Below are positions 1-18,746 of a stretch of 20,000 bases of DNA, piece by piece. How positions within the stretch are numbered: the first letter of the stretch is position 1; the number at the start of each line of letters is the position of its first letter. The notes beneath the pieces were generated by a model that searched no databases, was not told the DNA's origin, and worked only from the letters and a program-made list of their open reading frames with translations. Origin of the DNA: an uncultured virus (IMG/VR IMGVR_UViG_3300042505_000808) (lineage: Duplodnaviria; Heunggongvirae; Uroviricota; Caudoviricetes); the IMG/VR virus record IMGVR_UViG_3300042505_000808. One strand, 5' to 3'. Made by a program: the position numbers and the translations under genes.

Positions 1-633
1 TTTGTTAAAAAATCCGGCATCTTGTGTGGCAAACTTAGTTGCCATAATACCTTTACGTGCCCCATAGGTTCCGGCCCAATACTCGGCAGGGGACAACCCT
101 TCGCTGTAGCTACGCAGTACAGGGATTGGAATCACATCATCCCGCTGATCCGAATACAGCATGTCTGAACCTAACAAACTAGTTAAATTCATAGACTTAC
201 CGCGCGTACCTGACATTACCTGCATCCCAAGCGGATTCTTATTTAGCAATGCCTCTGCAAGTACTTGTTTTTGTTGTTCTGGACTTTCTTTACCAACGGC
301 ACGAATAATCTGCTCATTTCGCTGCTGATCTGTCAAAGATTCGTCAGATAGAATGTTGGTAAGTGTTGCTCTAACTTTCTGGCGAGAAGCTAATGCCGCT
401 TTGCTTACTTGCAAATGGCGAAGACCAAAAGACATGCCACCCTGCTCTTGAGCCATGCTTTGGCCAAGACCACTTAGCTTAAAAGAAATGTCTTTATAAC
501 GCTCTGGGTGTTGTTGTGCCACTTGCTGTAATAAAGATTGCAGCCCTTTTTTATCTAGCACACGATGAGAGTCTCTCAACTCTTCCGGAAGGACATCATT
601 AATTAACAGTTGTCCAACGGTCGTATTCAACAT
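1..633 (-). CDS. rpoC: RNA polymerase beta' subunit, C-terminal part (split rpoC); truncated by the window edge
   Basis: Not in the ORF track. Manual translation from ATG at 633 is open to position 1: MLNTTVGQLLINDVLPEELRDSHRVLDKKGLQSLL...NPLGMQVMSGTRGK...IPIPVLRSYSEGLSPAEYWAGTYGARKGIMATKFATQDAGFFNK. This matches bacterial beta' motifs TTVGR, SGARG, F.EGL and the bridge helix [25 protein letters not shown]. Confidence 0.93.
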   Translation of the reverse strand, partial: MLNTTVGQLLINDVLPEELRDSHRVLDKKGLQSLLQQVAQQHPERYKDISFKLSGLGQSMAQEQGGMSFGLRHLQVSKAALASRQKVRATLTNILSDESLTDQQRNEQIIRAVGKESPEQQKQVLAEALLNKNPLGMQVMSGTRGKSMNLTSLLGSDMLYSDQRDDVIPIPVLRSYSEGLSPAEYWAGTYGARKGIMATKFATQDAGFFNK

Positions 634-674
634 GGATAGTTCTCAGCGTGTGCAAATTATTTAAAATCTGGATT

Positions 675-1244
675 TTAGTCGTCACTATCGTCACCACCAA
701 AGGCGGCTTCGATATCTTTAAGAGTAATTTCTTCACTCTTGCCACGCTTTGCTTTCTTACGAGATGGCTTAGGTTCATCTTGTATAATAGCAGCCGCCTC
801 TGGCATACTCTCAACAACTTTGACTACTTCTTCTTTAATAGCTTCAGGAGCTAGTATAGAAAAAGATATGGAGTCTGCCTGATCACGGGTTAATTCTCCC
901 CGTCCAACCGACATGTCTACAACGATTTGCAGCTGTGTAATTATATATTCAGTGGCCTTCACTGTGATAAGCGTGGCTCCGTTTTCAAATTCAGCTTGTA
1001 TGGCTGCGAGCCCATAGCAATTATCAAGTATTTCTAACTCTACTTCTTTTTTTGGAGGAAGTTGAAGTTTAGCAATAAGAGGGGCATCTTCTAATATAGG
1101 TAGTGACATCTCGGCATAATACTTATTATTAGAAGAGTTTAAGTTAGAAGATTGTTGATAAGTAGGAGCAGGGATAGCTGTAAGGCTAACCTCTGGTTTT
1201 CGGTCTCGATAGTAGCAGTCAGAAGATCGTAAAGAATCGTCCAT
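675..1244 (-). CDS. hypothetical protein (189 aa)
   Basis: ATG start 1 nt after the upstream stop; same strand as neighbours; basic then acidic C-terminal tail; no recognised family. Confidence 0.7.
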   Translation of the reverse strand: MDDSLRSSDCYYRDRKPEVSLTAIPAPTYQQSSNLNSSNNKYYAEMSLPILEDAPLIAKLQLPPKKEVELEILDNCYGLAAIQAEFENGATLITVKATEYIITQLQIVVDMSVGRGELTRDQADSISFSILAPEAIKEEVVKVVESMPEAAAIIQDEPKPSRKKAKRGKSEEITLKDIEAAFGGDDSDD

Positions 1245-1245
1245 A

Positions 1246-1470
1246 TTACACCTGTATCTTAGTAGAAATAACGGTTTCGTTAATACCTAGTTTACGCAAA
1301 TTATCATTGAAACTGGCATCTTCACAATGAGACACCATAACGCTGGAAGAACCACCAAAAAGTGCAGCTACGCTAACTGGAGTACCATCTAGCATACGCA
1401 CTACAACCTGAGAAGCAGGTATCCTAAGTGGAGGTTTACCAATACTTTCAAGTACCTCCACGATAAACAT
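1246..1470 (-). CDS. hypothetical protein (74 aa)
   Basis: AAGGGA ribosome-binding site upstream of ATG; fills the gap between neighbours; globular-looking sequence. Confidence 0.75.
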   Translation of the reverse strand: MFIVEVLESIGKPPLRIPASQVVVRMLDGTPVSVAALFGGSSSVMVSHCEDASFNDNLRKLGINETVISTKIQV

Positions 1471-1482
1471 ATAATAAATCCC

Positions 1483-2211
1483 TTACTTGTTATTATTACG
1501 CATTAAAAGTGCAGTAGCCAACGCTGCTACACTGCCACTTTTAACAGAAGTATGTTGAGGGTAATAATCCGCAGGCAAGCTGAAAGCTGTACCACTTTCC
1601 CACGCCTCCGCTGACTTCATAGGAGCAATAGGTTGAATCTGCCCAAGACCACCACCCGACTTACCATCGGGAGTAGCTGCCGCTAATCCTGGCCCACCTT
1701 GTGCAATCTGGTTTAAGTCTTCAGGTGTTACCACCATATCAGACACAGGTACATGGATGCCAAGTGCATCAATAATCTTAGCAAGCATTTTCTTAATCTG
1801 TACGATTTCGACATTGATGTCAATTTTAGGTTTAAGACCGGGGCCTGCGCCTTGTGGTTGCCCGCCACCATTAGCTGACATTGCTTGTTGCACTGCCTGT
1901 TGAACCATCGGCATTATTGCTGCCATGGGGTCCATAGGGGGAGGAGGTGGAGCACCGCCACCCATAGAAGGATCCATAGGAGGAGGTGGGGCACCACCGC
2001 CCATAGAAGGATCCATAGGAGGAGCACCGCCCATTGAAGGGTCAGGAGGTGGAGCACCACCGCCCATAGAAGGATCCATAGGAGGAGCACCGCCAGAAGG
2101 CATAGGAGCCCCCATAGCAGGATCGCCTGCCGCAACAAATGCATATTTAGATAGGTGTCGTTTTCCTACATGTTGTCGGGCCATCTTTAACAATTCCAAA
2201 TTAACTGCCAT
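1483..2211 (-). CDS. Pro/Gly/Met-rich low-complexity protein with DPSMGG repeats
   Basis: AAGGAG lies 7 nt upstream of the ATG at 2211 (ORF track start 2217 is too close to it); repeated (M)DPSMGG(G)APP units; one amphipathic helix (INVEIVQIKKMLAKIIDALGI). Confidence 0.8.
   Translation of the reverse strand: MAVNLELLKMARQHVGKRHLSKYAFVAAGDPAMGAPMPSGGAPPMDPSMGGGAPPPDPSMGGAPPMDPSMGGGAPPPPMDPSMGGGAPPPPPMDPMAAIMPMVQQAVQQAMSANGGGQPQGAGPGLKPKIDINVEIVQIKKMLAKIIDALGIHVPVSDMVVTPEDLNQIAQGGPGLAAATPDGKSGGGLGQIQPIAPMKSAEAWESGTAFSLPADYYPQHTSVKSGSVAALATALLMRNNNK
1922..2125. repeat. imperfect coding tandem repeat (DPSMGG(G)APP units)
   Basis: Recurrent ccgcccatagaaggatccataggagga-type units of variable, in-frame length. 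Confidence 0.85.
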
Positions 2212-2283
2212 AAACATACTCCTTGTGTGATCTCATCTTATGATTCTAAGTTCTAATCAAAATCTAGGATAGAGATATATTGC

Positions 2284-5200
2284 CTAACCATTTAAAATTC
2301 GTACGGGATCGTTGATCGAAATATCTCCACGTGCATGCGCTCGTCTTACATCCTGTATATTCTGGAAAATCCTTAATGGTCGATCAGATTTACGAGAAGG
2401 ATCTGTACCCATAAATAAACCACCAATGTACTCATTAGCAGGGGCATGCATTACAGACTTCATATCACCCACACTAAAAAGATTACGACTTGGCAATAAG
2501 CGGTCAAATGCTTCTTGCCTAGCTTTTTCCGTACTTGGCACATGATAGTTCATGGTGTCGCCATCAAAGTCAGCACCAAATCCCTTCACGATCAAAGGAC
2601 TTACTTGTAGGGTATTCCCTTTAGTCAATCTTGGCCTCATCGCCATAATCCCAAACTTATGCAAAACAGGAGCACGACTAATATATACAGGACGATGCTC
2701 CATCTCTTCAAGCAAGAATTTGCGTGCTACCGGAGTCTTATCTTCTAATTGAGTACGAGCCTGCAGCATCGACATGCCTTGTCGCACCAATCTTCTAGTA
2801 ACAAATTTCTCATAGACCTTAAATGCTTTATCTTCGGGCAGCCCTACCGAGTCCATGTCCAATTCCGGATTTGGAGTAATTACCGCTCGACCTACATTGT
2901 CTACCGTAGACGAAATCAGTTTGCGTTGTACAACCCCGAACTTAGGGCTTGCACCAAACACATTTTTTAAAGCCCCACGAACATTCTTCTCTTGGCTTTT
3001 TGCACTAATAGGATCACCTAACCCAGTCACCGCTTTAAATGCTTGATAGGTAGAAAGACGCTCCGATCCCGAAGCTTCTTCCCCTACTTCTTGCTGCATT
3101 TTGCTAAAATTCTGATTAGCCTCAAACAGTTCTTTATAAAGGTGATTAGCGTCGTTAACCAATGGCATGCCATTGCTCATCAAGCTAACTGGACGAAACA
3201 TTGGAGGAAGAACTGGCACTTTGGTCAGCATGTAGTCCGCAGGCTTCAGCCCTAGTTTATGTGCAGATTTAAAATAGCTAAGCTTACGAATTGCGGCATC
3301 TCGTTGCGCCCCTCGCCCTGCGGCTATCATAGCTCGAGCTTTAGGGATTTCTGCTTCTGGATTAAGATTCTCTAATGCCTTTTGTAAAGCTTTCGTACCG
3401 GTGCCATATTTCTCTAAAAATTCTGTACCTGCCACAATGCCTTCAAACTTTTTCTGTGTTAGCCCAAGCATATGACGAATAGGTTCTTCCATTACTGGGT
3501 TAGGTAAAGGTTCGTGCAAACGCATAAACGACCAACGAGTGCCCCCGTGTCCACCAGTTTTAGCCTTGTCAAATAAGCCACCATTAATCTCTTTAAGCTG
3601 ATTTCCCCATTCTACTCCGTCTGCGCTGCTAAGCTCACGATCCCCAGCTAAGTTGTCAATGTCCTTGTCCGTCAATGCCATGATTTGAGTCTGCGTTCCT
3701 TGCTTAACCACATTAACTCCAGCAGATTGCAGCTGGGCTACAAACTTCTGATAAGCAAAAGGAACTTTAGTAACCTTAGGGTTATACCCAGACATGTACT
3801 GCATCCAATAATCATCATTCTTCTGCCTACGAATTGTAAAAATGTCCTGCAGTGTGTCCGTAGCTCCGTGAGAAAGTAATGCGTTGGCATCCATTAGCCC
3901 AATACGCTTAGAACCTTCAACACCACCTTTAGCCGGTGCATCTTCCATCGTGTAAGCTCCACCACTTCTACCTTGTCCTTTAGACTCAGAGGTGTGATGC
4001 AGTTTCATGAAGAAACGATTACCCGTTGCCACATTTTTAATTTTTTGATCTTTAGATGGGTCTATAATGTCTTCTAAGTCCGACAAACCTTCCTTAGCTA
4101 ATTCTTGCATAACCCATTGAGTCATATCTTTTTTAGTGTCAAAATCATCCACCTTAATAGGCATGCCACGCTTAGCTGCTATTTTACCTAGAAACAATTC
4201 AGACATTTGAGCTGGGTTGGTTCGGCTAATAATCCCAAGAGGATTAAGAAGCACTTCAAAAGGTTGTTTATTTGAATCATGGGGCATTTCGCTATCTGGG
4301 ATGATGTCAGCAATAACACCTTTATCCCCATAACGACCCGACAGCTTATCTCCAACCTGCGTTGGCGATTCTGCCTTAACTACAACGACTGGACCTTTCT
4401 TACCCATTACCACATCAGTAACAACACCACTATCGTGATGCTGCCAAAGTACTGCTGCGTCGTTGAATCCAGATTGACCCTTCTTATGCACTTTGTTGTA
4501 TACATTTTCCTTTTGTGTGATCCCCAATACCAAAGGATCTCCAAAGTTAACTACTGTACCAGGCTTGACCACTCCTTGATCGTCTATGTTCGCTAATATG
4601 TCTTTTTTAAAGGTAGCTGGAAATGCTTGAATAAATTGTCTTTTACCGACTTGTGTTTTGTCATCCACTTCCAACTCATGCTGGTACATATGGGAAGAAG
4701 CTGTCTTCTTTGCAAAGCTTTCTGAGATAACAACCGCATCTTCAAAGTTTTTACCCTGCCATGGGATATAGGCAGTGCGAGCATTTCGGCCTAAAGCCAT
4801 TGTTCCAGTACTGTCCGTGAAGTTAGAGCTAGCTAATAACTGATTTGGTCTAAATGTGTCACCGGGTTTAACTGCGGCAGTTTGATGAAAAAAGGTTTTA
4901 CGATTGAAAGGAAAATTATGATAAAGTTCGTGCGTTTCTTCTGTTCCGTCTGCATTACGCACTTTAATCTCTTCATCCGTCACCGAGGTAACTGTACCTC
5001 CTTGTGTTGCCCTTAAAGCTCCCATCCCAGATGAGTATAGCTCTTCATAACTTTGTTTACCGCCTGTGTGCGGAACTGCAGACTGTACCAAAGGAGCTTC
5101 AGGAGAAGCTAAAGGTAATGCTTGTGTGGTCATACGAGATGCCATCACTAATCGCTGACCTTTTACCTGACTCTTCATGGGGATGACATTAGAAAGAGGA

Positions 5201-6750
5201 TTAAATGCTTCTTCCATGTCAGGAAGCTCTAAATCAATGCTTGATTTAGGTACATGTAACATCTTACCGCCACGCATCGCCACTACACGGGCATCTTCAC
5301 CATCTTGGCTTCCGGGAAAACCAACGGTTAAGTCTGCTACATCTTGAGGAGTTTTAAAAGTCATTTCCCCGCTACGCAGATCCTTAAACTGAGCATAGAG
5401 CTTACCATCGCTTCCTTTACGAGATCCCCTAGCTAGATATGTGTCCACCCCTACACGACCCGACTCGGGAGTACGCACAGGATCCACATAACCCAACATG
5501 CTTGACTGTACATTTCTGGATTCCATGGGAATTGCATCCATAGAACCAATACCACCCTCACCCACTCGAGTAACAGACATTGTCTTTTCATAAATGTCTG
5601 TAGGATTAATTTCTTCAATCGCTTGCCCTAGCCCGCTACCGAGCAAAGCACTTTTTAACTGTTTTTCTAATGCTGAAGACGGCATCGAATCCAAATTACC
5701 TTTGCCTGACATCTTCCACAGTAGGTTACGGCGAACCCCGCCTTTATCTCGTGCAATACGCTCTGAAAACAAATCTTCTGGACCTACAAACTGCTGAAAA
5801 TGCAGTGCATCTCTATCATCCGGATCCGCTTCCTTTCTATTAACCTTTATCAGCTTTTTGGTAATGTCCATCAATGTGTCTAGTGTGACACCTGAATGTG
5901 GGTTTCCCAGCGTGCGACGATTTACCTCGGGATCCATTTCCATCTTAGAAAACTTAGCAAGCAATGCTTGTTTTTGTTTTTCTTCTGGTTCAGCTAGTTC
6001 TTTAGAAGAAAGAAACATGCCTTTAAGTCTTGTATACTCAGATGCATCATCCGAATTGTAATTAGAAGCGAATAGATCTTTACCCCAAGCTTCCTGCGCC
6101 TGCTCCGAGGTAACTCCCATAGCTTTTAACAAAGGAGTTAATCCAACTGAAGCTTGCCCAACCTTAAGCTTAAATTTGCCTTTCTCAGGGTCTAAGAAAT
6201 AACGCTGTGATACGCCTTTTCCAGGCATCACATTAACATGGGATTCAATTTCACCATTGTTCCGTGTGCGGGTGTAAACTCCGGGCAGTAACCGCTGTTG
6301 ATTTCTTAAAATGTACTCAGTGCCATTGTTAATAAAGGTACCACGCTCCGTTAAGTGTGGGACAGTGGCAAGAACTGATTTCTTGGAGGCTATCACTTGC
6401 TGTGTTGCATTATCCATTAACTCCCAAGTTCCTTCTAACCTACGACCTTGAGACCTACCATTAAGAATAGCAGCTTTCTGCTCCTGCTTGCTGGCGGTAT
6501 CCCCATCACGATAGTTTACTCCAGTTAAACTAAGCGTATGTCGGTCATTAGATATAGGTTGTACTTGCTGTGCTGCTTGCAACACTCTGTCATAAATAAT
6601 AGATTTGACTTTTTTGGTGTCGTGAAATTCATGAAAACTAGGCAATGGAGCTGCAGGCTGCATTGTTTGTAGAAGCTGTGCCTGTTGTGGCACCCCGCCT
6701 AGCAACGAGATGTTAGCAGTATCAAACAAATTAGACGAAAGTGGAAGCAT
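2284..6750 (-). CDS. rpoB: multisubunit RNA polymerase: beta fused to the N-terminal half of beta' (phage type)
   Basis: Beta motifs in order: GTFINNGTEY, TPESGRVG, RLVMASRMTTQALPL, ALGRNARTAYIPWQGKNFED, GDKLSGRYGDKG, LLNPLGIISRTN, FMKLHH. Then beta' motifs with no stop: GGLFD, VPVLPPMFRP, VDNVGRAVI, SRAPVLHKFG and the catalytic GADFDGD (2557-2577). Confidence 0.96.
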   Translation of the reverse strand: MLPLSSNLFDTANISLLGGVPQQAQLLQTMQPAAPLPSFHEFHDTKKVKSIIYDRVLQAAQQVQPISNDRHTLSLTGVNYRDGDTASKQEQKAAILNGRSQGRRLEGTWELMDNATQQVIASKKSVLATVPHLTERGTFINNGTEYILRNQQRLLPGVYTRTRNNGEIESHVNVMPGKGVSQRYFLDPEKGKFKLKVGQASVGLTPLLKAMGVTSEQAQEAWGKDLFASNYNSDDASEYTRLKGMFLSSKELAEPEEKQKQALLAKFSKMEMDPEVNRRTLGNPHSGVTLDTLMDITKKLIKVNRKEADPDDRDALHFQQFVGPEDLFSERIARDKGGVRRNLLWKMSGKGNLDSMPSSALEKQLKSALLGSGLGQAIEEINPTDIYEKTMSVTRVGEGGIGSMDAIPMESRNVQSSMLGYVDPVRTPESGRVGVDTYLARGSRKGSDGKLYAQFKDLRSGEMTFKTPQDVADLTVGFPGSQDGEDARVVAMRGGKMLHVPKSSIDLELPDMEEAFNPLSNVIPMKSQVKGQRLVMASRMTTQALPLASPEAPLVQSAVPHTGGKQSYEELYSSGMGALRATQGGTVTSVTDEEIKVRNADGTEETHELYHNFPFNRKTFFHQTAAVKPGDTFRPNQLLASSNFTDSTGTMALGRNARTAYIPWQGKNFEDAVVISESFAKKTASSHMYQHELEVDDKTQVGKRQFIQAFPATFKKDILANIDDQGVVKPGTVVNFGDPLVLGITQKENVYNKVHKKGQSGFNDAAVLWQHHDSGVVTDVVMGKKGPVVVVKAESPTQVGDKLSGRYGDKGVIADIIPDSEMPHDSNKQPFEVLLNPLGIISRTNPAQMSELFLGKIAAKRGMPIKVDDFDTKKDMTQWVMQELAKEGLSDLEDIIDPSKDQKIKNVATGNRFFMKLHHTSESKGQGRSGGAYTMEDAPAKGGVEGSKRIGLMDANALLSHGATDTLQDIFTIRRQKNDDYWMQYMSGYNPKVTKVPFAYQKFVAQLQSAGVNVVKQGTQTQIMALTDKDIDNLAGDRELSSADGVEWGNQLKEINGGLFDKAKTGGHGGTRWSFMRLHEPLPNPVMEEPIRHMLGLTQKKFEGIVAGTEFLEKYGTGTKALQKALENLNPEAEIPKARAMIAAGRGAQRDAAIRKLSYFKSAHKLGLKPADYMLTKVPVLPPMFRPVSLMSNGMPLVNDANHLYKELFEANQNFSKMQQEVGEEASGSERLSTYQAFKAVTGLGDPISAKSQEKNVRGALKNVFGASPKFGVVQRKLISSTVDNVGRAVITPNPELDMDSVGLPEDKAFKVYEKFVTRRLVRQGMSMLQARTQLEDKTPVARKFLLEEMEHRPVYISRAPVLHKFGIMAMRPRLTKGNTLQVSPLIVKGFGADFDGDTMNYHVPSTEKARQEAFDRLLPSRNLFSVGDMKSVMHAPANEYIGGLFMGTDPSRKSDRPLRIFQNIQDVRRAHARGDISINDPVRILNG

Positions 6751-6770
6751 TCATAAAACTCTAAATAAGA

Positions 6771-7565
6771 TTATATGGCATGAGGAATAGCATAAATTTC
6801 AGGAGGCTGTACTAATGCCTGCCGACGTGCTCTTTCCTCCACAGCCTCATCCAATATCGCACGCCTGCTATTCTTCTTCATTGCTTTATTGACCAAATAG
6901 TAACCAGCAGGAACACTTGATAATAACCAAGTTAAAGCTAACCCTTTGCTAATACCAGAAGCGTTTGGAAAAGTAGAATTAAATGTGTCAGAGATAGCTC
7001 CAACAGGATCTAATGCCGACTTTTGACTGTACCCTGCAAATGCTCGATCTAAATAATCATCAGTTCCTTTCTTATATGCGCCTAATAAAGCTTCCTCATA
7101 CTTCTTTTTTGAGGCTTCAAGTTTTGCTTTGCTTTCTTGTTCTTTTGCTCTGTTTAACAAAAGATCCACACCTTTCCACCCGCCATAAGCAGCAAGCGGA
7201 GCTCCTAAAAGCATACCAGGCAAATAATAGTCTAAGCCATAAGGAGAAGTTGCTCTAGAATTCGAATCAATAGCATTTTTCTCTTTTGGGTAAGCTACTG
7301 GCATATCAATTACGCGTGGCCCCTTTTTAGGATTTTTTGTATTATCAAAAAGTCCTGTAATCCCTCGAACTGCAGCTCCTGCCCCTACGCCTAATGCTAA
7401 TGTTTTAAGAATACTTTTAATTGCATCAGCTTGCATTTGCTGATTAACTTGAGTTCTGAGGTCTTCACCAATTGCACCTACTGGAGTAACAATGGGGGTT
7501 GCTGCAGATTTTTCAACTTTAATTTGTTTCAATAACTTTTTTGCACTTGTCTTATTCATGTCCAT
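6771..7565 (-). CDS. hypothetical membrane or virion-associated protein with Gly/Ala-rich hydrophobic segments
   Basis: Three hydrophobic small-residue segments (LALGVGAGAAV, GMLLGAPLAAYGGW, GLALTWLLSSVPAGYY). Start may be the ATG at 7559. Confidence 0.7.
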   Translation of the reverse strand: MDMNKTSAKKLLKQIKVEKSAATPIVTPVGAIGEDLRTQVNQQMQADAIKSILKTLALGVGAGAAVRGITGLFDNTKNPKKGPRVIDMPVAYPKEKNAIDSNSRATSPYGLDYYLPGMLLGAPLAAYGGWKGVDLLLNRAKEQESKAKLEASKKKYEEALLGAYKKGTDDYLDRAFAGYSQKSALDPVGAISDTFNSTFPNASGISKGLALTWLLSSVPAGYYLVNKAMKKNSRRAILDEAVEERARRQALVQPPEIYAIPHAI

Positions 7566-7569
7566 ATCC

Positions 7570-7944
7570 TTATGGGGTAGAGGAAGAAGGCATCAAGCAA
7601 GGATTACCATCTTCTAAGAAATATTCGAGCCATTCTGCATAGATATAATGATGCTTATCCTTCTCTTCTCGCCATCTCTCGATAAATACCAACTGATACC
7701 AAGAATTTGCCACACCATCCATGACTTTTAAATACGCTTGATTCTGTTCATTGTCTCCAGTGTAAAATGTAGCATTTTTAGGGTCTGCTACTCGTACTAG
7801 TCTATCTTCATACTCTTCGTTTTTATAAAGAGGTGCTTGATGCCCACGAAAAGGCAAACCATCTACATCCGCACGATCCCAAAATAATTGGCCTCGTTCG
7901 TTACCTTCTTTGCGATTCGTAAACTTCACTAAACTATTCGCCAT
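7570..7944 (-). CDS. hypothetical protein (124 aa)
   Basis: GAGG upstream of ATG; tightly packed between neighbours. Confidence 0.75.
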   Translation of the reverse strand: MANSLVKFTNRKEGNERGQLFWDRADVDGLPFRGHQAPLYKNEEYEDRLVRVADPKNATFYTGDNEQNQAYLKVMDGVANSWYQLVFIERWREEKDKHHYIYAEWLEYFLEDGNPCLMPSSSTP

Positions 7945-10427: not shown

Positions 10428-12707
10428 TTACAAAGCACAAGCACCGCCTGCGCACGCAGTCTGCTGATGCAAATCTGTCATGTCGGATCGTTCATAGCGA
10501 ACTAGTTTAGCCCAGTTGATCTTGGGCATAGCTGCAACTCTACGGTCGAACTCTTCTTGAGAAATCGCTTCATAAGGGGCTAAATGATACATACCCCCAT
10601 CAAAGGGCAAGAAACTTAAGCCTCCCACAATATCCCAGTTGTCATAGACCCATTTGCCCACTTCCAACCATTCAGTAGGTCGAATGTAAATAGTGACGCT
10701 AGGATTATGCTCAGTCCAATGCACCTTGAAGGTTTTCCATTTTTCCAACTGGCTAAGAGCTGTTTGAGTTTCTAACAGCACTCCACCTTTAGGAGCCTTC
10801 ATAGGAAACTCTAATACCAAGCCACTACCATCGTAATCGGTTAAGCAAGGTACACCTTCATCTTTCAACATCTGTGCTACTGGATTAGTAGAGTTTGCCC
10901 TAACTCGCCTAACATACCATTCCCCGTGATGTCCTTTGAAACCTGCAGGCGTGTTGAAAAACACACTGCTATCCCCCGAAGGCTTAATACAAGTTGTGGC
11001 TGCAGAGACATTGATACCAAATCGTGCTGCCCATTTAGCATTAACTTCGTTGACTAAACTTAATAACTTAGCTAAAGTTCCACCAGCTTTTGCGTTGTCT
11101 TGGAATAGCGGGTGATCAAGAAAACCAAGCAAATCTACACCCAGTAACCTCTCTTCTTCACTATTCTTTTTCCATTCTTCTCCAATGTACTTAAAGCGAG
11201 TCATCGTAGATTGAAGCGTGCCCCAAATTGTAGCTAACTCCACTTTACGAGCAATCTCTTCATAAGTGTCCGTGACACGAATAACCGCAATGGATAGGTT
11301 GCAGAACTGCTTGTGTCTCAGAATAATTTCACCGCAAGGATTCGTCCCAAAGAGGTGGCCATGGTGTTTGCGCCGTTTGGGAAACTGACTTTTCAACCCG
11401 CCTCGATTGAAGATACCACGCTCACCCGAGTTTGACTTGGCCATCGATAACCATTCTTCCATCCAAATCAATTGATCAGGTTTTTCGTTATAGACTGCAG
11501 AGTTGTTAGCCTGATTGCGTTGCTCATTGGTAGTCCAGAAATCTTGTTGCTTGCAATCTCGCATTTCACGATCATGCAGATCTGATAAAGATATACCGCT
11601 AGCCCTACGCACCCCACCCATACGCACAATTCGATGAGCAAAACAATTAATGTCATGAAGATCCAAGCTAGACAGATACCGTCCTTGTCTTGCTAAGATT
11701 CGAGCTTTAGAAAACTCTAACAAGTCTTTTAATGGACCTGGGCCAGAAGCTCTTCCACCTTTGATTTTAAGTGGAGCACCTGATTCTCGGATATGACTGT
11801 AATCAAAGTGGATATCTTCACCTGCCCACCATGCGTCTAACCCTGCCTTATACGCATCACACCAACCTTCTGTGCTGTCTTCGATTACATAAGTAATAGG
11901 TTCACTATGCTTCTTTTGTCGTTTAACTCGAGGAAACTCTTCTACGCTAAACTCTTTTTCTACTGAAAATCCAACACCCGTGCCCTGCATGAGTACATAG
12001 AGTTCCTCTGCCAAATCTGTAGTATTTTGCAGCATTTGAAAAGAACAGTTGTATACTCCGACATGACATCGTTCTAAAGCAGGTCCAGCCATCTGCACGC
12101 AACGCATGGAAGGAGCAGACTCTAACCGCAAAAGACTTTGCTTAAGCTTCCCCCATTCTTCTTCAGTTACATTGTGGTTTTCACGCTTGCAATGTGTTTG
12201 AAAAAATCCGATAACCCGATCCACTGTTTCAGGCCAAGTCTCTCTGCGCCCTAGCTCGGGAACAAAACGAGCAAACTTGTCTAAAGCTTGGAACTTCTGC
12301 AGCTCGTTATCAAAATAAGTGTCGTTTTCTTGAAATGCAGCAACTACCGCTTCGGGCAATGGTGCGTTTTCTCGTTGCTGTCTTTTGACTTCTCGAAAGA
12401 GAATATACTGCTTGGCCACGAGGTATAACCCATTAGCCATCAATTGGGTTTCCACTAGATTCTGAATCTCTTCCACATCTACTACTTTGTTGCTGCTGCA
12501 CACAATGTTGTATACTTGCTCCCCAACTAGTTTGCTGATGCGAGCTGCCTCGCCTTCATCGTATTTTAGCTCACTTACTAAGCAACGATGTAAGGCAGTG
12601 TAGATGCGAGCTTGATCAAAGTTCACCACTTTCCCGCTTCGCTTCTTAACCGTTAAATCCACATGACTACGAGCTGAAGCATCTTTTTTAAAAGAAGTAA
12701 TTTGCAC
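10428..12707 (-). CDS. nrdJ: class II (adenosylcobalamin-dependent) ribonucleotide reductase with N-terminal ATP cone
   Basis: ATP cone VKKRSGKVVNFDQARI; YNCSF; GGVRRAS; GTNPCGEI (thiyl Cys); CNLS; TCIKPSG; C-terminal CAGGAC as in monomeric RTPR enzymes; no class I tyrosine pair seen and no small subunit adjacent. GTG start with AGGAG. Confidence 0.92.
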   Translation of the reverse strand: MQITSFKKDASARSHVDLTVKKRSGKVVNFDQARIYTALHRCLVSELKYDEGEAARISKLVGEQVYNIVCSSNKVVDVEEIQNLVETQLMANGLYLVAKQYILFREVKRQQRENAPLPEAVVAAFQENDTYFDNELQKFQALDKFARFVPELGRRETWPETVDRVIGFFQTHCKRENHNVTEEEWGKLKQSLLRLESAPSMRCVQMAGPALERCHVGVYNCSFQMLQNTTDLAEELYVLMQGTGVGFSVEKEFSVEEFPRVKRQKKHSEPITYVIEDSTEGWCDAYKAGLDAWWAGEDIHFDYSHIRESGAPLKIKGGRASGPGPLKDLLEFSKARILARQGRYLSSLDLHDINCFAHRIVRMGGVRRASGISLSDLHDREMRDCKQQDFWTTNEQRNQANNSAVYNEKPDQLIWMEEWLSMAKSNSGERGIFNRGGLKSQFPKRRKHHGHLFGTNPCGEIILRHKQFCNLSIAVIRVTDTYEEIARKVELATIWGTLQSTMTRFKYIGEEWKKNSEEERLLGVDLLGFLDHPLFQDNAKAGGTLAKLLSLVNEVNAKWAARFGINVSAATTCIKPSGDSSVFFNTPAGFKGHHGEWYVRRVRANSTNPVAQMLKDEGVPCLTDYDGSGLVLEFPMKAPKGGVLLETQTALSQLEKWKTFKVHWTEHNPSVTIYIRPTEWLEVGKWVYDNWDIVGGLSFLPFDGGMYHLAPYEAISQEEFDRRVAAMPKINWAKLVRYERSDMTDLHQQTACAGGACAL

Positions 12708-12827: not shown

Positions 12828-13274
12828 TTATTGTTCGTGATCGTTGTTTTTTTCTACATAATCAGAAAAGTCAGTAGAAGGTACATCTTTGCCATTCCAC
12901 ATCATGCGAGAACGAGGCCCAAGCTCTCGAGAAACTTGTGCATAATCCGCTACAATTTCTTGATCTTTGCTAATTTCTCGCTTTGCTACTAAATCAATTT
13001 GATCCTTATCTTTCTTTATGTCAACATTTGCTTTCCATTGATGGTTACAGTAACGAGCTAATTCTGTTAAATTCCAGATTTTAGACCCAAACTCATCTTC
13101 TCCGCCAGCAGTCCCAGCACTACCAATGCTCTCTCCTTCTTTGTAATCTTTATCCGCAAATATACCTTTCCCTTTTATATGGGATTCCCCTATATACCAG
13201 CCATTATGGCTAGAGGCCATTTTGTCAGTAAATCGGATAGGTACTGCTCGTAATCGCTGAAGAAACGCTTCCAT
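12828..13274 (-). CDS. SET-domain protein (putative lysine methyltransferase)
   Basis: SET motifs: SHIKGKGIFA (GxG), ARYCNHQ (RxxNH), LVAKREI..DQEIVADY (ELxxDY). AAGGAG upstream. Confidence 0.88.
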   Translation of the reverse strand: MEAFLQRLRAVPIRFTDKMASSHNGWYIGESHIKGKGIFADKDYKEGESIGSAGTAGGEDEFGSKIWNLTELARYCNHQWKANVDIKKDKDQIDLVAKREISKDQEIVADYAQVSRELGPRSRMMWNGKDVPSTDFSDYVEKNNDHEQ

Positions 13275-13358: not shown

Positions 13359-13571
13359 ATGCTAGTATTAAGTCGAAGAAAAGGCGAGAGCATTAAGATC
13401 AGTGATAACATCACTATCACCATAGTGGACATTCGTGGGGATAAAATTCAAATAGGAATAGAAGCTCCTCGTGAAGTTGCCGTACACCGTAGCGAAATAG
13501 CGAAGTTAATTGAAAATAAACTCAAGGCAGAGTCCAACTTGGAAGCTCCTGAGAATCCTTCTGCTTCGTAG
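13359..13571 (+). CDS. csrA: carbon storage regulator CsrA/RsmA family RNA-binding protein
   Basis: MLVLSRRKGESIKISDNITITIVDIRGDKIQIGIEAPREVAVHRSEI is a canonical CsrA sequence with the VHRxE RNA-binding motif. AAGGAAGGA upstream. Confidence 0.96.
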   Translation: MLVLSRRKGESIKISDNITITIVDIRGDKIQIGIEAPREVAVHRSEIAKLIENKLKAESNLEAPENPSAS

Positions 13572-14106
13572 ATTTACTCGTAGCATTGGCAGTGAGTACC
13601 CCAGTTTTACGCACTGCCACTATTATGGAAAAATCAGAATCACCTTCAACTTTGGTAGGTAACCCGTAGCTACGGCGTAACTTACCTAGTTCTGGCGATT
13701 TGATTCGCATGTGCCAGCAAGTAGAAACACCGGGCCAACCTTTGGCAGATGTTTCTTCAAGCCCATCAAGGTAATAGCTAAAAGCTTTACCTCGCTCGCT
13801 TATCTTCTCAGTACCACCTATTTGCTTTAATTCTTCGGGGGTCATAACCACGATACCTGCACGCAAAGCCCCGCCATCTACAGAAGTGGGTAAAGAAATA
13901 CCAGGTTCGTGCATTGCGTCGAAAATACCACGGACTAATGCAGTAGGTATGCCAACTATCAAGTAACTAGGAGCTGCACATTTTGAATTAGTGATTTGAA
14001 GCAAACCCGTCATTTTAACTTCCGCCCATTTCTCGGGCATTTGCAAAACATCATAGAGCAATAAATGCCGATAATCTGGAATATCAGCTGTAGAGATCAG
14101 ACTCAT
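13522..14106 (-). CDS. probable 2H-phosphoesterase-fold protein lacking both catalytic histidines
   Basis: The scaffold ...AGIVVMTPEE...W.MRIKSPELGKLRRSYGL...DFSIIVAVRK resembles, from memory, phage 2H proteins with AHISV and FHITxA motifs; both HxS/T positions are altered. Confidence 0.55.
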   Translation of the reverse strand: MSLISTADIPDYRHLLLYDVLQMPEKWAEVKMTGLLQITNSKCAAPSYLIVGIPTALVRGIFDAMHEPGISLPTSVDGGALRAGIVVMTPEELKQIGGTEKISERGKAFSYYLDGLEETSAKGWPGVSTCWHMRIKSPELGKLRRSYGLPTKVEGDSDFSIIVAVRKTGVLTANATSKSTKQKDSQELPSWTLP

Positions 14107-15485: not shown

Positions 15486-15695
15486 TTAACCTTCCGTCCA
15501 CCCCTGTTTGTAGCCCCACAATCCCACCTCTAACTTAGAGGAAAGATTTAGTTTTTTACGGATACGTTTAACATAAGTCTTAATTGTTTCATAGCCAAGA
15601 TTAAGCTTTACTGCAATGTCTTTGTACTTTAAGTTTTTACTGATTAGTATGACTATTTCCCGTTCTCGTGCCGTCAACCCTTTGTCTTGCTGCAT
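15486..15695 (-). CDS. stand-alone LuxR/GerE-type helix-turn-helix regulator
   Basis: LTAREREIVILI...YKDIAVKLNLGYETIKTYVKRIRKKLNL fits the LuxR C-terminal HTH pattern; no receiver or autoinducer domain. Confidence 0.9.
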   Translation of the reverse strand: MQQDKGLTAREREIVILISKNLKYKDIAVKLNLGYETIKTYVKRIRKKLNLSSKLEVGLWGYKQGWTEG

Positions 15696-15716: not shown

Positions 15717-16493
15717 TTAAAATAAAGTGGTACTATCCATGTATTCGAGCACATCATGAGGCGCCGCACTTTTCAGCTCGGTCCAATTCATCACTCGACT
15801 GCGAACATCCCTACGCTGTACTCGTTTTTGGTTGGGCAAACATGCTGGGCTAAACTTTAACTCCAAAAACTCTAACAGATTCTCTAAGACACCTCGAAAG
15901 TCTAAAAGTAACTCATGATAGGGAATAACAGCTCGGTCTGGGCAAAGCCTATTAACTTTAGACATAGCTGCAGTGTGGTCCCGCACAAATTGCGTTAGTT
16001 CTGCAGGTTCAATGCAAATTGCAGGTAAGCGGTCACTACTACTAATTTCCACATTACCCTCCCTTTGCTGCTGCTGTTTCCACGCAACATAACAAGCAAT
16101 AGGATTACGCACAACATGCACTAAACAGAAATCGCCACGGCGACAACGCTGGTCCGTATAATCCCACAAATCGTAATGGCGTAAGTGTTCGTAATTGACC
16201 TTTACCCCGACGGCCTTTTCGCCATGCAGTATGTTGTCAAAAATCTTGTTATTGAAGTATTGTTCAACGCTTAGATGGGTGGGATCAAAATGGTCAATGA
16301 TTTTACCAGTAGTCCCAAAGTACATGGAATGTTCGACTTTTCTAACCTTGTCATCATCGTGAAGCAGATCGCCATGACAAACTATGTCAGGGTGTGCAGC
16401 TAAAGAAGACTGTAATAAACCATACCCCGAATGCCGATTTCCGATCACCATAAAATTAAGAATTTCTGCGTTTTCTCGGTTGTACCAAGCCAT
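15717..16493 (-). CDS. sulfotransferase-family protein (Stf0-like), degenerate PAPS motifs
   Basis: FMVIGNRHSGYGLLQSSLAAHPDIVCHGDLL resembles RSGST.L...L..HP.I.C.GE; VHVVRNP (3'-phosphate-binding Arg); IPYHELL (YEDL-like). Confidence 0.75.
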   Translation of the reverse strand: MAWYNRENAEILNFMVIGNRHSGYGLLQSSLAAHPDIVCHGDLLHDDDKVRKVEHSMYFGTTGKIIDHFDPTHLSVEQYFNNKIFDNILHGEKAVGVKVNYEHLRHYDLWDYTDQRCRRGDFCLVHVVRNPIACYVAWKQQQQREGNVEISSSDRLPAICIEPAELTQFVRDHTAAMSKVNRLCPDRAVIPYHELLLDFRGVLENLLEFLELKFSPACLPNQKRVQRRDVRSRVMNWTELKSAAPHDVLEYMDSTTLF

Positions 16494-16958: not shown

Positions 16959-17375
16959 TTACTTCCACGGATGTAGTTGGCGGTAAGCCTTCACCTCTTC
17001 CTGACACTTTTTGTTAGTGATTGTCCAGTTACCCGAATGACCTAGAAAAAAATGATGCTTGCGACATAAGGTAATTAAATTATCCGGATCCAGCTCCAAC
17101 TCGGGATTGTTTTTAAAACTAAAAATATGATGCACATTGAGGTTTTGCGAGCTACCGCAAGCTTCACAGCAAGGGTGCGCCTTGATAAATCGCTGGCGCA
17201 CCGCAGGCCACTTCCCCGAGCGAGGGCCCTCGAATACCGCATGGTCATGCGATACCATCTCAGCTTGTTGTTCAACTGGCTCTAGCGGAATTTCCAGTTC
17301 ATAGAGGGTGGGGAAATTCCCCCACCCCAATAAACAGCCGAAAAACAACAAAAGTACTAACCAAAAGAACTTCAT
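16959..17375 (-). CDS. HNH endonuclease with a hydrophobic N-terminal signal or anchor
   Basis: CEAC...NVHHI...DNLITLCRKHH HNH/zinc motif; N-terminus MKFFWLVLLLFFGCLLGWG; ATG directly abuts the upstream TAA. Confidence 0.85.
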   Translation of the reverse strand: MKFFWLVLLLFFGCLLGWGNFPTLYELEIPLEPVEQQAEMVSHDHAVFEGPRSGKWPAVRQRFIKAHPCCEACGSSQNLNVHHIFSFKNNPELELDPDNLITLCRKHHFFLGHSGNWTITNKKCQEEVKAYRQLHPWK

Positions 17376-18746
17376 TTACTTGCCCTTCTGGGGAAAACCC
17401 ACACCCGTGGGCTTCCCCGTGTAACTATTGAGGTTTACCTGCAATCTTGCTACTGGGCCAGTATCGTGATCCCATACAAAGGCCATAGCACCCCGTTGCT
17501 GCCAGTTAAATCCTTTTAATCGATGCCAAGCATTAGGAGGAGTTAAAGCGGGTAAATACTCAACGCCAACCCCTTGCTCCTCCATTACTACAGGACTTCC
17601 AGTTCCTTTGCGGTGCTGGTCTCCTAAATGCCACTCCCTAAAGCTAGTGTCTGCCCAGTGCTCACGGCATTCGTGTGCCATCAAGGCAGCCAATCGAATG
17701 GACTTAATATGATGCCCATGATCAAACCCAATCAAGTTAGTACCGAAACGATAAAACTTATAAGGGCTTGGAGTTACATCTACTGTAACATTATCGTCGT
17801 TGCGATAGTAGGCTTTTAACACCTGTCCTAGGCTAAACGAAGCTTGCTGGTCGTGATTACCAGAAACTTGAATTACCCTAACCGGAGCTAGTGCCGTAAG
17901 CTTGTCCACCATGGTAACTGCAAGCTTAATTGCATTCTCGTACACATGCTGGAAGGACAGACCTTCTGGCTGAAGTGTTCCCCTCGTGGTGGTGTGCATT
18001 GCGTTATCATGGTGGAGGAAGTCATTCCCAAAAGGAAAGACAATCTCTTCAAACTTACCATACAAGTGGGCTTGGGCTAGCAGCGAGTCAATTGCCCACA
18101 GACACATGCGACTGCATTCCTCTAAGCTCCAATTGTGATCGCTTTCACCCTTGTAGCATTGCATGCCATAGTGCGGATCCATGATCGATACTTCAAGGGC
18201 ACGACGAGCTTTCTGCTTCTTGTCTTTAGGATATTTAATCTTCAGCGTAATAGGCGAGTTATCTTCTAGCTGCTGAAGCACACGATCTACCGCCACTCTT
18301 TCATCTCGCTTACGCCTTAGCTGTACCTTAATCTGCTTTAGCCCAGTCTTCCAGATCCCGCTGGTGGGCTTAGCCCCTGCAACTTCCCAGTTGTTGACGG
18401 TGATGCGTTCCACCTCATACAACTCCATGTCAATTCCGGATTTTAAAAGAAGTTCTTCTGCAGTGTTAATCTGGTCGCCCACGTAATCAACTTCAGTAAA
18501 TTGACCTCGTTCATTGATAGTTAGTTTTTCTTTGGCAGACTTTGCAATATTCTGACCAGGCTTTGGCTTTATGCTGGTCATTGCCCGCATGCGTTCCATT
18601 AGCCCAGCTTTTTTAAGCCTTGCACCAACAGTGGAACGATAAGGTATACCTAGTGCTGTGGCTGTTTTAGCCAAGCTACCACCACAGCTTATTGCCGTAT
18701 CAAAGATAACTTGAATGGGAATATCATACTTAGGCTTAACTGGCAT
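17376..18746 (-). CDS. calcineurin-like metallophosphoesterase with an N-terminal HTH-like region
   Basis: Motifs DPHYG (DxH), GNDFLH (GxD), SGNHD, DHGH, LGDQH; N-terminal GGSLAKTATALGIPYRSTV is HTH-like. GGAGG upstream. Confidence 0.88.
   Translation of the reverse strand: MPVKPKYDIPIQVIFDTAISCGGSLAKTATALGIPYRSTVGARLKKAGLMERMRAMTSIKPKPGQNIAKSAKEKLTINERGQFTEVDYVGDQINTAEELLLKSGIDMELYEVERITVNNWEVAGAKPTSGIWKTGLKQIKVQLRRKRDERVAVDRVLQQLEDNSPITLKIKYPKDKKQKARRALEVSIMDPHYGMQCYKGESDHNWSLEECSRMCLWAIDSLLAQAHLYGKFEEIVFPFGNDFLHHDNAMHTTTRGTLQPEGLSFQHVYENAIKLAVTMVDKLTALAPVRVIQVSGNHDQQASFSLGQVLKAYYRNDDNVTVDVTPSPYKFYRFGTNLIGFDHGHHIKSIRLAALMAHECREHWADTSFREWHLGDQHRKGTGSPVVMEEQGVGVEYLPALTPPNAWHRLKGFNWQQRGAMAFVWDHDTGPVARLQVNLNSYTGKPTGVGFPQKGK

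Follow-up and report, generated by a model that had tools for sequence, protein, structure and literature searches.

The locus described here raises the question of how a phage can encode a multisubunit RNA polymerase (RNAP) whose chains do not end where β and β′ end, and of how such an arrangement could have come about. The window analysed, a stretch of 20,000 nucleotides, belongs to a 179-kb contig of an uncultured freshwater phage (83% complete) on which terminase large subunit, tail collar fibre, baseplate J and a homologue of the portal gp204 of phage Arash are phage markers; the RNAP is surrounded by phage genes and not by an ordinary bacterial chromosome, a possibility that had been raised when the DNA was first read from its letters. 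Two chains encoded here form the core of the only multisubunit RNAP of this phage. Chain 1 contains both double-psi barrels, the Mg site, the lid and the clamp coiled-coil, and chain 2 contains SGxRG, the bridge helix, the trigger loop, the jaw and a variable tail.

Translation of the chain 1 gene (window 2284-6750, minus strand; stop at 2284-2286) gave a single frame of 1488 aa with no internal stops. Residues 1 to about 1022 (window 3685-6750, minus strand) form a complete β part, and residues 1023-1488 (window 2287-3684, minus strand) follow in frame as the N-terminal catalytic part of β′. The HMM mapping proposed in the earlier, sequence-only reading of this DNA placed Rpb2 and Rpb1 domains in this chain (Rpb2_3 at 376-440, Rpb2_6 at 582-935, Rpb1_1 at 1167-1222 and Rpb1_2 at 1334-1414) and Rpb1_5 in chain 2. 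The β double-psi barrel was recognised as Rpb2_6 (PF00562, 3.7e-50) and the β′ barrel by PF00623 (1.2e-23). The DxDGD Mg site is present as DFDGD, the Mg-binding aspartates of the β′ barrel (residues 1394-1398; window 2557-2571, minus strand), in the context GADFDGD as against NADFDGD in the clade consensus. Chain 1 ends 90 residues past this motif, and translation and Pfam together confirm the claim that one ORF runs from β into β′ and stops at about that distance. Its PHROG matches were 24349 and 25354. Against solved structures, residues 120-1035 aligned to cyanobacterial β (96-1074 of 1100) and residues 1114-1480 to cyanobacterial γ, or RpoC1 (184-552 of 624); the closest structural matches of the β′ part were cyanobacterial γ and plastid RpoC1, with target-normalised TM-scores of 0.61-0.65. 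The AF2 model of the chain had a pLDDT of 84.5, and of 82-94 across the junction.

The β and β′ parts meet at LQSAGVNVVKQGTQTQIMAL (chain 1 residues 1007-1026; window 3673-3732, minus strand) without a variable linker, and the GGLFD...TGG(x5)W stretch that follows stands in place of the N-terminal zinc-binding domain. This junction was kept in 25/25 aligned clade members and in 30/30 fused proteins, and was spanned by all of the best 150 cluster representatives (E<=1e-179).

The remainder of β′ is encoded by a separate gene of 1310 aa (contig 118812-122744), which begins at ATG 633, has its first 211 codons in the window (1..633, minus strand) and continues past the window edge. Its product starts with MLNTTVGQ and contains SGTRG; about 620 aa comprising funnel, bridge helix, trigger loop and jaw are followed by a low-complexity extension of about 700 aa, rich in P, Q, N and G, that is kept solely in the closest relatives. 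The bridge helix and trigger loop module was found as Rpb1_5 (PF04998, 1.4e-18); residues 2-494 aligned residue by residue to Streptomyces β′ 658-1169, and residues 23-371 to cyanobacterial RpoC2 5-369. Alignment and Rpb1_5 thus bear out the proposal that the missing part of β′, with TTVG and SGTRG, resumes at this ATG. When the two chains were mapped onto the unsplit β′ of Dojkabacteria, the end of chain 1 fell at 631-636 and the start of chain 2 at 640-646; as the two adjoin, no residues were lost at the cut.

ORFs A, B and C, all on the minus strand, lie between the two genes. ORF A (window 1483..2217; 244 aa) has repeats of the PPPMDPSMGGG type and is kept between the RNAP genes in relatives (L017-L021, L026, L028 and L036); it gave no Pfam match above cut-off, no PHROG match and no named match in the protein Atlas, where it hit unnamed viral clusters at 0.86-0.88. 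ORF B (window 1246..1470; 74 aa) measures 74-76 aa in six relatives. ORF C (window 675..1244; 189 aa) is also kept in six relatives and had no match in Pfam (above cut-off), PHROG or the protein Atlas. The spacer between the RNAP halves measured 477-5134 nt in 41/41 loci and varied by lineage, and all the split genomes that were inspected had one or more genes between the two halves. The two-gene layout itself is common to a large clade that includes the cultured Salmonella phage Arash and the Vibrio phages D69, D148 and D181. In one metatranscriptome run, short contigs covered ORFs A-C only (window 1136-2083), possibly through DNA carry-over, and no contigs from the same run covered the RNAP genes.

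That a frameshift or chimera falsely links rpoB to rpoC, or that the 1.6 kb between the β′ parts is misassembled, is next to impossible, for although Logan contigs of three runs end at window 2020-2065, this break lies in the tandem repeat of ORF A, away from the junction; a contig of 32,574 bp (run X18, from another study) crosses window 2065-6750 without indels and with 35 substitutions, contig pieces of run X17 show zero differences over the junction, the junction is conserved as described above, the order fusion-A-B-C-β′-C is repeated in six independently assembled relatives, the same two-gene layout was present in 7/7 loci first examined, and 0/264 homologues have the β′ C-half. Thus the layout is not an artefact, and the frameshift or misassembly feared in the sequence-only reading did not appear in the independent contigs.

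It is also very improbable that the two parts of β′ are rejoined, whether by an intron holding ORFs A-C or by a split intein, so that the working enzyme would be one complete fusion. Homologues often carry inteins and LAGLIDADG homing endonucleases (Pfam PF14528, PF14890, PF03161), the fusion gene of Vibrio phages D181 and D148 contains a homing endonuclease, and unsplit β-β′ relatives are known; but the ends of the two chains abut contiguous β′ residues, which leaves no space for intein halves, a search of window 1-7000 for Rfam intron families (E<=1) found none, and the spacer, which differs in length from lineage to lineage, includes opposite-strand genes in Arash.

A two-chain core therefore stands, and what accompanies it was judged from relatives, since at 83% completeness the contig alone is weak evidence for the absence of α or of a second RNAP. 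Of five related phage records, two are isolate genomes in full and a third is a contig with terminal repeats that is 100% complete. Each record had one Rpb2_6 match and so a single RNAP set (5/5), and neither the α N-domain (PF01000) nor ω (PF01192) was found in any (0/5 for each, versus 14/14 control genomes). The search for α, ω and σ homologues suggested in the sequence-only reading turned up a σ-like gene by sequence similarity: its product matched Sigma70_r3 (1.4e-5) and phrog_351 (1.3e-8) and resembled Arash gp10, and no Sigma70_r2 above cut-off was found in the contig or in two close relatives. Stand-alone α-CTD and small σ-region-4-like proteins are also encoded by the phage. The two RNAP chains contain no cysteine in 2798 residues, against 39.5 expected at the contig's 1.41%, and both β′ zinc sites are gone in this phage, with no cysteine at either. 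In a comparison that left out cyanobacterial sequences, the N-terminal zinc domain was missing in 30/30 fused proteins and present in 15/16 bacterial ones, and the second zinc site was lost in 8/11 split forms, this phage included. The enzyme thus departs from the canonical α2ββ′ω form in the α N-domain, in ω and in the two β′ zinc sites. Enrichment of k-mers in intergenic DNA returned terminal tandem repeats only and no promoter motif, and in window 1-7700 there were 14 sigma-70-type promoter matches versus 14.5 expected, with a terminator scan also at chance level. A genome-contig scan found fused-split loci in MAGs labelled Gemmataceae, Nanopelagicales, Aquaspirillum, Thermoguttaceae, Moraxellaceae, Lentisphaera, Desulfonatronovibrio and Thermoplasmata; as these labels gave no consistent signal, host candidates drawn from them were rejected and no host is named.

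Many viral contigs carry an unsplit β-β′ fusion of about 2000 aa that shares the junction described above and likewise has no N-terminal zinc domain. Such fusions are new here; we found no published description of them, nor of the fused-then-split layout. In 80 IMG/VR loci there were 28 full fusions, 51 cut fusions, of which 42 also showed the C-half gene, and 1 case of separate genes. The unsplit proteins differ from the split ones in having a continuous β′, a retained second zinc site and 4-10 cysteines; those of the P0268-P0292 group have the same junction motif and share with the split forms a clade that excludes bacteria. Apparent fusions of Dojkabacteria and Saccharibacteria in joined tblastn rows were rejected, since rpoB and rpoC are in fact separate there, as usual.

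In trees of β′ only, of which three of four were quick or FastTree and in which the root was assumed on the bacterial branch, all fused forms made one clade against bacteria (100) and the split forms were nested in a clade with 98-99 support. PhiKZ/AR9 and the Helicobacteraceae/Wolbachia fusions were left out of these trees; YerA41 and Rhizobium phage RHph_Y65 entered a single tree, where their very long branches fell on the bacterial side, and were dropped afterwards. Full fusions made up the basal branches of the fused clade (9 in one tree, 32 in another), and monophyly of the full fusions was rejected (AU test with LG+G4 on 25 rows, p=0.0043). Because the split forms nest in full fusions, which are themselves not monophyletic, the layout probably had a two-step origin, with a complete β-β′ fusion first and fission later. 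Adjacent rpoB- and rpoC-type genes would have fused fully in a phage ancestor, with loss of the N-terminal zinc domain, and the fused gene would then have been cut after the β′ barrel, at a module boundary near, though distinct from, the cyanobacterial/plastid RpoC1|RpoC2 boundary. The cut probably came about through DNA inserted into the fused gene, as genes lie between the halves in all split genomes examined.

We consider it unlikely that the split was ancestral and that the fusions of about 2000 aa were re-fused, or that the cut was repeated independently. The ten full fusions of the P0268 group do sit among split lineages in the best trees, within the clade of all split forms, which implies that the cut arose two to three times at one site or that one lineage re-fused, and a single split origin was not the best tree, though it was not rejected either (log-likelihood 5.3 below it; AU p=0.066). 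Against these points, the basal fused branches are all full fusions, whose monophyly the AU test rejects, and the sharing of one cut residue by Arash/D69 and this clade fits one event better than three. What had been said of a bacterial-like origin holds only in part: bacterial β and β′ are the nearest solved relatives, but the fused clade lies outside all 48 bacterial β′ proteins sampled and so no donor can be named.

Whether the enzyme is made in the cell or brought into it was approached through Arash. In Arash virions the fusion protein Gp206 was top in spectra (3516), and Gp216, σ Gp10 and helicase Gp217 were identified as well, in preparations to which, as the authors caution, abundant enzymes may be carried over (PMC10585845). 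By analogy, at about 29% identity, these proteomic data suggest that the RNAP, the σ homologue and the SNF2-type helicase of our phage may be packed in the virion. The homologues of those four Arash virion proteins (two RNAP chains, σ and helicase) are all cysteine-free here and are among the 13 cysteine-free ORFs of the 95 on the contig with at least 200 aa; such a state is not needed for presence in virion preparations, since the Arash RNAP has 1+4 cysteines and has not lost its second zinc site. The opposite reading, in which the enzyme is not virion-borne and is made after infection for middle and late genes while host RNAP transcribes the early ones, keeps some weight but is doubtful. It would agree with the authors' caveat, and the α-CTD and σ-region-4-like proteins could act on host RNAP; however, each genome has a single RNAP set, the fusion protein leads the Arash spectra, the homologues of the Arash virion RNAP, σ and helicase are all free of cysteine, and sigma-70-type promoters occur only at chance level.

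As a whole, the observations are probably best explained by a two-chain phage RNAP derived from a complete fusion that was re-cut. We regard as evenly balanced the proposal that the covalent tether of β to β′ would replace the α2 assembly platform, that the enzyme would work with phage σ-like factors, and that it would be packed in the virion with the σ homologue and the SNF2-type helicase and enter the cell with the phage DNA. More tentatively, there may be a widespread phage lineage whose two-chain RNAP, without α, ω, zinc or cysteine, is shipped in the virion with σ and SNF2 helicase as a transcription kit.

An α-type platform is held to be necessary for joining β and β′ in multisubunit RNAPs, and the α-less phage RNAPs (phiKZ, AR9), which diverge strongly, are a puzzle. 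The present clade can be aligned residue by residue to bacterial RNAP, yet it has neither α nor ω and carries both barrels in one chain; in this subclade both zinc sites and every cysteine have gone as well. If true, fusion followed by re-cutting would be a natural experiment in which RNAP subunit boundaries became movable once the barrels were tethered, and the unsplit forms, the split forms, and split forms that differ in whether the second zinc site is kept are dated natural variants for structure-function work. The cultured phages Arash and Vibrio D69 make assembly of the minimal core, use of σ and passage through the tail directly testable. Marker-gene pipelines that require separate β and β′ genes will overlook such phages.

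The combination of fusion and split, with both catalytic barrels in one chain, is thus upheld, and in a phage genome. Among known systems, the cyanobacterial and plastid RpoC1 (γ)/RpoC2 pair also has β′ cut after the catalytic barrel, but β there is a separate chain, and the cut follows that of the phage by about 20 residues: residue 23 of chain 2 corresponds to RpoC2 5, and chain 1 ends at γ 552 of 624. It had been predicted that the phage cut would lie ahead of the cyanobacterial one, and the γ/RpoC2 alignments agree; it is also about 90 residues from the cut in Yersinia phage YerA41. The reading as an independent rearrangement is supported. Cyanobacterial and plastid RNAP differs further in its α, ω and zinc features. 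The fusions of Helicobacteraceae and Wolbachia are cellular, have an unsplit β′ and work with α and ω. Zakharova 1999 and Lane & Darst 2010 are reportedly the sources for these fused rpoB-rpoC genes, in which β and β′ are one chain. They are described as such in PMC7483510.

The phiKZ/AR9-type RNAPs come closer in being phage-encoded, without α and ω, cut in β′ after the barrel and, for one set, packed in the virion (PMC7598289). These phages have two enzyme sets, β in 2-3 pieces and, in the passages that describe them, no σ homologue (PMC7824862, PMC13282480). This phage differs in having one set (a single Rpb2_6 gene and a single Rpb1_2 gene), a β that is whole and fused, and a σ-like gene; PHROG matches to phiKZ/AR9-type families were much weaker (1e-25 to 1e-7 versus 1e-74). 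The mReC phages are likewise uncultured tailed phages whose bacterial-type β and β′ branch outside cellular lineages (Weinheimer & Aylward 2020, PMC7481178). Their definition required NADxDGD and separate β and β′ matches no shorter than 800 aa, and the first rows of Supplementary Dataset 1 show adjacent separate genes, often in two sets; the text passages on them mention no fusion (PMC7481178), and fused forms may occur among the 97 contigs. Our phage has a fused gene and GADFDGD.

Closest are the Arash and Vibrio phages, whose records name the proteins 'subunit beta'; where the Arash paper names β and β′, the layout itself goes unremarked (PMC10585845). Arash (OQ632216.1) has the same fusion in gp206 (1525 aa) and the C-half in gp216 (606 aa), with one ORF running from β to about 90 aa past DFDGD and a C-half gene that starts at the matching residue: by blastp, chain 1 residue 1485 aligns to gp206 1524 of 1525, and chain 2 residue 7 to gp216 9. 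The σ gp10, helicase gp217 and portal of Arash have homologues on our contig. These relatives differ in that their RNAPs are only about 29-30% identical to the one described here, have not lost the second zinc site, contain a few cysteines, and have no 700-aa tail on the β′ C-half, and their halves lie 4.7 kb (Arash) and 0.6 kb (D69) apart. They resemble it in lacking the N-terminal zinc domain and in having one RNAP per genome, without α or ω, and the cut in Arash and D69 coincides with that of our phage to within about two residues.

All long open reading frames (ORFs) in the window lie on the minus strand. The first of the RNA polymerase (RNAP) genes (window 2284-6750, minus) translates in a single frame into a protein of 1488 aa (chain 1), in which the Pfam domains Rpb2_3, Rpb2_6, Rpb1_1 and Rpb1_2 follow in that order, so that one ORF does run from beta into beta-prime, as the sequence-only reading had proposed. 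In alignments to solved structures, chain 1 residues 120-1035 corresponded to cyanobacterial beta (96-1074 of 1100) and residues 1114-1480 to cyanobacterial gamma/RpoC1 (184-552 of 624) and also to bacterial beta-prime. The remainder of beta-prime had been placed in a separate gene starting at ATG 633, and this too was borne out: the product (chain 2; minus strand, continuing past the window edge, 1310 aa on the contig) has an Rpb1_5 match and aligned over residues 2-494 with Streptomyces beta-prime 658-1169 and over residues 23-371 with cyanobacterial RpoC2 5-369. With an unsplit Dojkabacteria beta-prime as ruler, chain 1 stops at 631-636 and chain 2 begins at 640-646, and because the chain ends abut in this way the cut in beta-prime is clean. 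The three ORFs separating the genes (A, B and C; 244, 74 and 189 aa) had no family matches in Pfam or PHROGs. Chain 2 ends in a tail of about 700 aa (residues ~640-1310, contig 120732-122744), of low complexity, rich in P, Q, N, G and M and with a charged helical end; good conservation of it is limited to the three closest relatives, and it is weakly similar or not detectable in the longer C-half genes of two IMG/VR loci (L019 and L020, respectively) and is missing from the C-halves of a third (L021) and of the cultured phages Arash and D69.

A frameshift, stop or misassembly at the junction between beta and beta-prime was not seen. At least 85% of sampled words were present in 19 DNA runs from lake water, runoff and estuary metagenomes, 16 of which are possible sources of the contig DNA; contig-level comparison was made with the three DNA runs that did not carry this flag and one RNA run. 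A 32,574-bp runoff-metagenome contig spanning window 2065-6750 differed by 35 substitutions and no insertions or deletions, and lake-run pieces over the junction showed no differences. The only contig break point in the three DNA runs was at window 2020-2065, within a repeat of ORF A. Short contigs from one estuary metatranscriptome library matched ORFs A-C exactly (window 1136-2083) and left the RNAP genes unmatched.

The same layout was found in homologues. In a word-indexed protein search with chain 1 residues 900-1488, PF00562 and PF00623 were both present in all of the 120 clusters listed (57-97% identity) except P0098 and P0100. Exhaustive searching with HMMER (query residues 800-1488) found 1772 representatives at E<=1e-30, and in the best 150 (E<=1e-179) the alignment always crossed the junction. 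None of the 264 homologues pooled from both searches contained the beta-prime C-half, and all seven loci inspected (five IMG/VR relatives, Salmonella phage Arash and Vibrio phage D69) had the fusion ORF with a separate downstream C-half gene. When 50,697 phage records were searched with chain 1 by tblastn, four covered 94-95% of it at 29-30% identity: Arash and the Vibrio phages D69, D148 and D181. The chain boundaries in Arash match those of the window: gp206 (1525 aa) ends where chain 1 does, and gp216 (606 aa) starts where chain 2 does.

The viral record is linear, 178,753 bp long and an estimated 83% complete; by a simple ORF call it has 213 ORFs, of which 193 share one strand. The flanking genome is that of a phage and not a bacterial chromosome, as genes for a terminase large subunit, tail collar fibre and baseplate J attest; these phage genes, together with missing alpha and omega, contradict a cellular origin. 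The contig also encodes a family A DNA polymerase, primase, helicases, SbcCD, ribonucleotide reductase (RNR) and PhoH, and has one Rpb1_2 and one Rpb2_6 gene. The proposed genome-wide search for alpha, omega and sigma homologues was partly rewarded, giving a sigma-like protein and an alpha C-terminal domain encoded on its own (104 aa, PF03118 2.9e-11; G000:C1:37075-37389, plus) on a contig with no alpha N-domain. Across five records (the window contig, two IMG/VR relatives that are 94% and 100% complete, Arash and D69), alpha N-domain and omega were each found in none, versus 14/14 control genomes; each record had exactly one beta barrel, Sigma70_r2 exceeded the cut-off in Arash and D69 only, and the lone alpha C-terminal domain was confined to the three freshwater contigs.

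Elsewhere in the window, all on the minus strand, are genes for a class II-type RNR with ATP-cone (10428-12707), a SET-domain protein (12828-13274), a 2H phosphoesterase (13522-14106), a 69-aa LuxR/sigma-region-4 HTH protein (15486-15695), a sulfotransferase (15717-16493), an HNH endonuclease (16959-17375) and a phrog_704 repair exonuclease (17376-18746). Outside it, a 431-aa tubulin/FtsZ-family protein (PF00091 8.6e-11, Tubulin_2 3.9e-5) is encoded at G000:C1:74778-76073 (plus); the pairing of such a protein with a phage's own RNAP has been linked to phiKZ-type nucleus-forming phages (PMC7824862). The final 550 bases of the contig contain 72-bp and 99-bp tandem repeats, the word GGAGCAAC recurs close to both contig ends (regions G000:C1:178200-178753 and 1-260), and the stretch at 174.4-175.3 kb (174400-175300) carries at least four coding repeats of ~290 bp that include collagen-like GPQG sequence. 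Phage contigs with this RNAP (L026-L039) also occur in metagenome-assembled species representatives from unrelated phyla (Gemmataceae, Nanopelagicales, Thermoguttaceae, Lentisphaera and a Thermoplasmata archaeon), which looks like binning contamination.

In an AlphaFold2 model of chain 1 residues 800-1488 (41-row alignment; mean pLDDT 84.5), ten-residue blocks over the junction scored 82-94, so the junction is predicted to be folded rather than a floppy linker. The top Foldseek matches were cyanobacterial gamma and plastid RpoC1, which covered almost the entire target with target-normalised TM-scores of 0.61-0.65, followed by bacterial beta-prime.

Scanning bacterial and archaeal species genomes with the clade alignment revealed two more distant relatives with beta, beta-prime-N and beta-prime-C in one ORF (L041, 2028 aa; L037, 5'-truncated). 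With the L041 protein as query across the cut region, 28 clusters of 1976-2609 aa were listed, all with PF00562 and PF00623 and 22 additionally with PF04998. Of the 80 loci that an IMG/VR scan with the full-fusion alignment recovered, 28 are full fusions, 42 are cut fusions with a visible C-half gene, nine are cut fusions with the C-half beyond the available DNA and one has separate genes (L180; a 598-aa beta piece and an unsplit 1026-aa beta-prime). A junction motif was common to all 30 fused proteins compared, full and split. Beta-prime trees, with the two parts of split forms concatenated, were run with FastTree (80 and 109 rows), IQ-TREE quick LG+C20+F+G4 (46 rows) and LG+G4 (25 rows), and in every one the branch separating fused forms from bacteria had 100% support. 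Because the full fusions are the basal branches of the fused clade, and all split forms, with ten full fusions, nest inside one 98-99% clade, the trees, rooted on bacteria, indicate that the full fusion would be ancestral and the cut derived. AU tests rejected a tree forcing the full fusions together (p=0.0043) but did not reject one forcing the split forms together (p=0.066); the history may involve a single cut and one re-fusion, or else two or three cuts.

In all 41 split loci, 477-5134 nt separate the two genes, which fits a scheme in which DNA inserted into the fused gene would have cut it in two. Homing endonucleases and inteins are frequent in fusion gene homologues, and we infer a link between them and the cut. 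Intein- or LAGLIDADG-bearing homologues include P0055, P0056, P0079, P0087, P0094, P0103, P0109, others and Vibrio phages D181 and D148, with lengths up to 3350 aa, and several homologue alignments break at ~600-605 of the 800-1488 query, beside DFDGD. No intron families were found by Rfam in window 1-7000 (E<=1). A split intein rejoining the halves is excluded by the contiguous ends on unsplit beta-prime.

The fused enzymes also differ in zinc sites. When 30 fused proteins were aligned with 16 bacterial beta-primes, the GLFCE...C.C...C..C zinc domain was present in 15 of the latter (the 16th is N-terminally truncated), whereas all 30 fused proteins had a short cysteine-free TGG(x5)W loop in its place. 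The second site (C-x-C-x2-C) was retained in 19/19 full fusions and in the split forms of Arash, D69 and L036, and was gone in the other 8 of 11 split forms, including the window's. Chains 1 and 2 contain no cysteine in 2798 residues, versus 39.5 expected (1.41% in the contig remainder), and 97 of 110 insert-free chain 1 homologues likewise have none.

Cysteine is absent from 13 of 95 contig ORFs of at least 200 aa, among them the RNAP chains and the homologues of Arash sigma gp10 (contig 155648-156385, E 6e-18) and helicase gp217 (SNF2-type; 91069-92589, E 1e-63); further examples lie at C1:80296-83223 and 147188-152383, and the set includes 975-aa and 1731-aa proteins without assigned function. 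The portal gp204 homologue is also on the contig (E 2e-50). In Arash virions, Gp206 gave more spectra than any other virion protein, and the proteins detected there included Gp216, sigma Gp10 and helicase Gp217 (PMC10585845); the available text names the RNAP proteins beta and beta-prime and leaves their layout undiscussed. A purely non-virion role for the RNAP is possible. The joint absence of cysteine and the detection of the homologues in Arash virions support, but do not show, a shared fate of RNAP chains, sigma and helicase, such as packaging and ejection, and lack of cysteine may mark a co-packaged or ejected protein set.

Neither an enzyme composed of beta::beta-prime-N and beta-prime-C nor an unsplit phage beta-beta-prime fusion of the kind seen here was found described in the full-text literature outside subscription journals. 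In Yersinia phage YerA41, beta-prime-N (556 aa), beta-prime-C (518 aa) and beta (924 aa) each have their own gene, and the cut in beta-prime lies ~90 residues downstream of the window's, whereas beta-prime of Rhizobium phage RHph_Y65 is whole (1127 aa). The phiKZ-type phages are described as having two RNAP sets, a split beta and no sigma (PMC7598289, PMC7824862, PMC13282480), and the crAss-type and YonO-type enzymes are single chains of a different kind and much more divergent.
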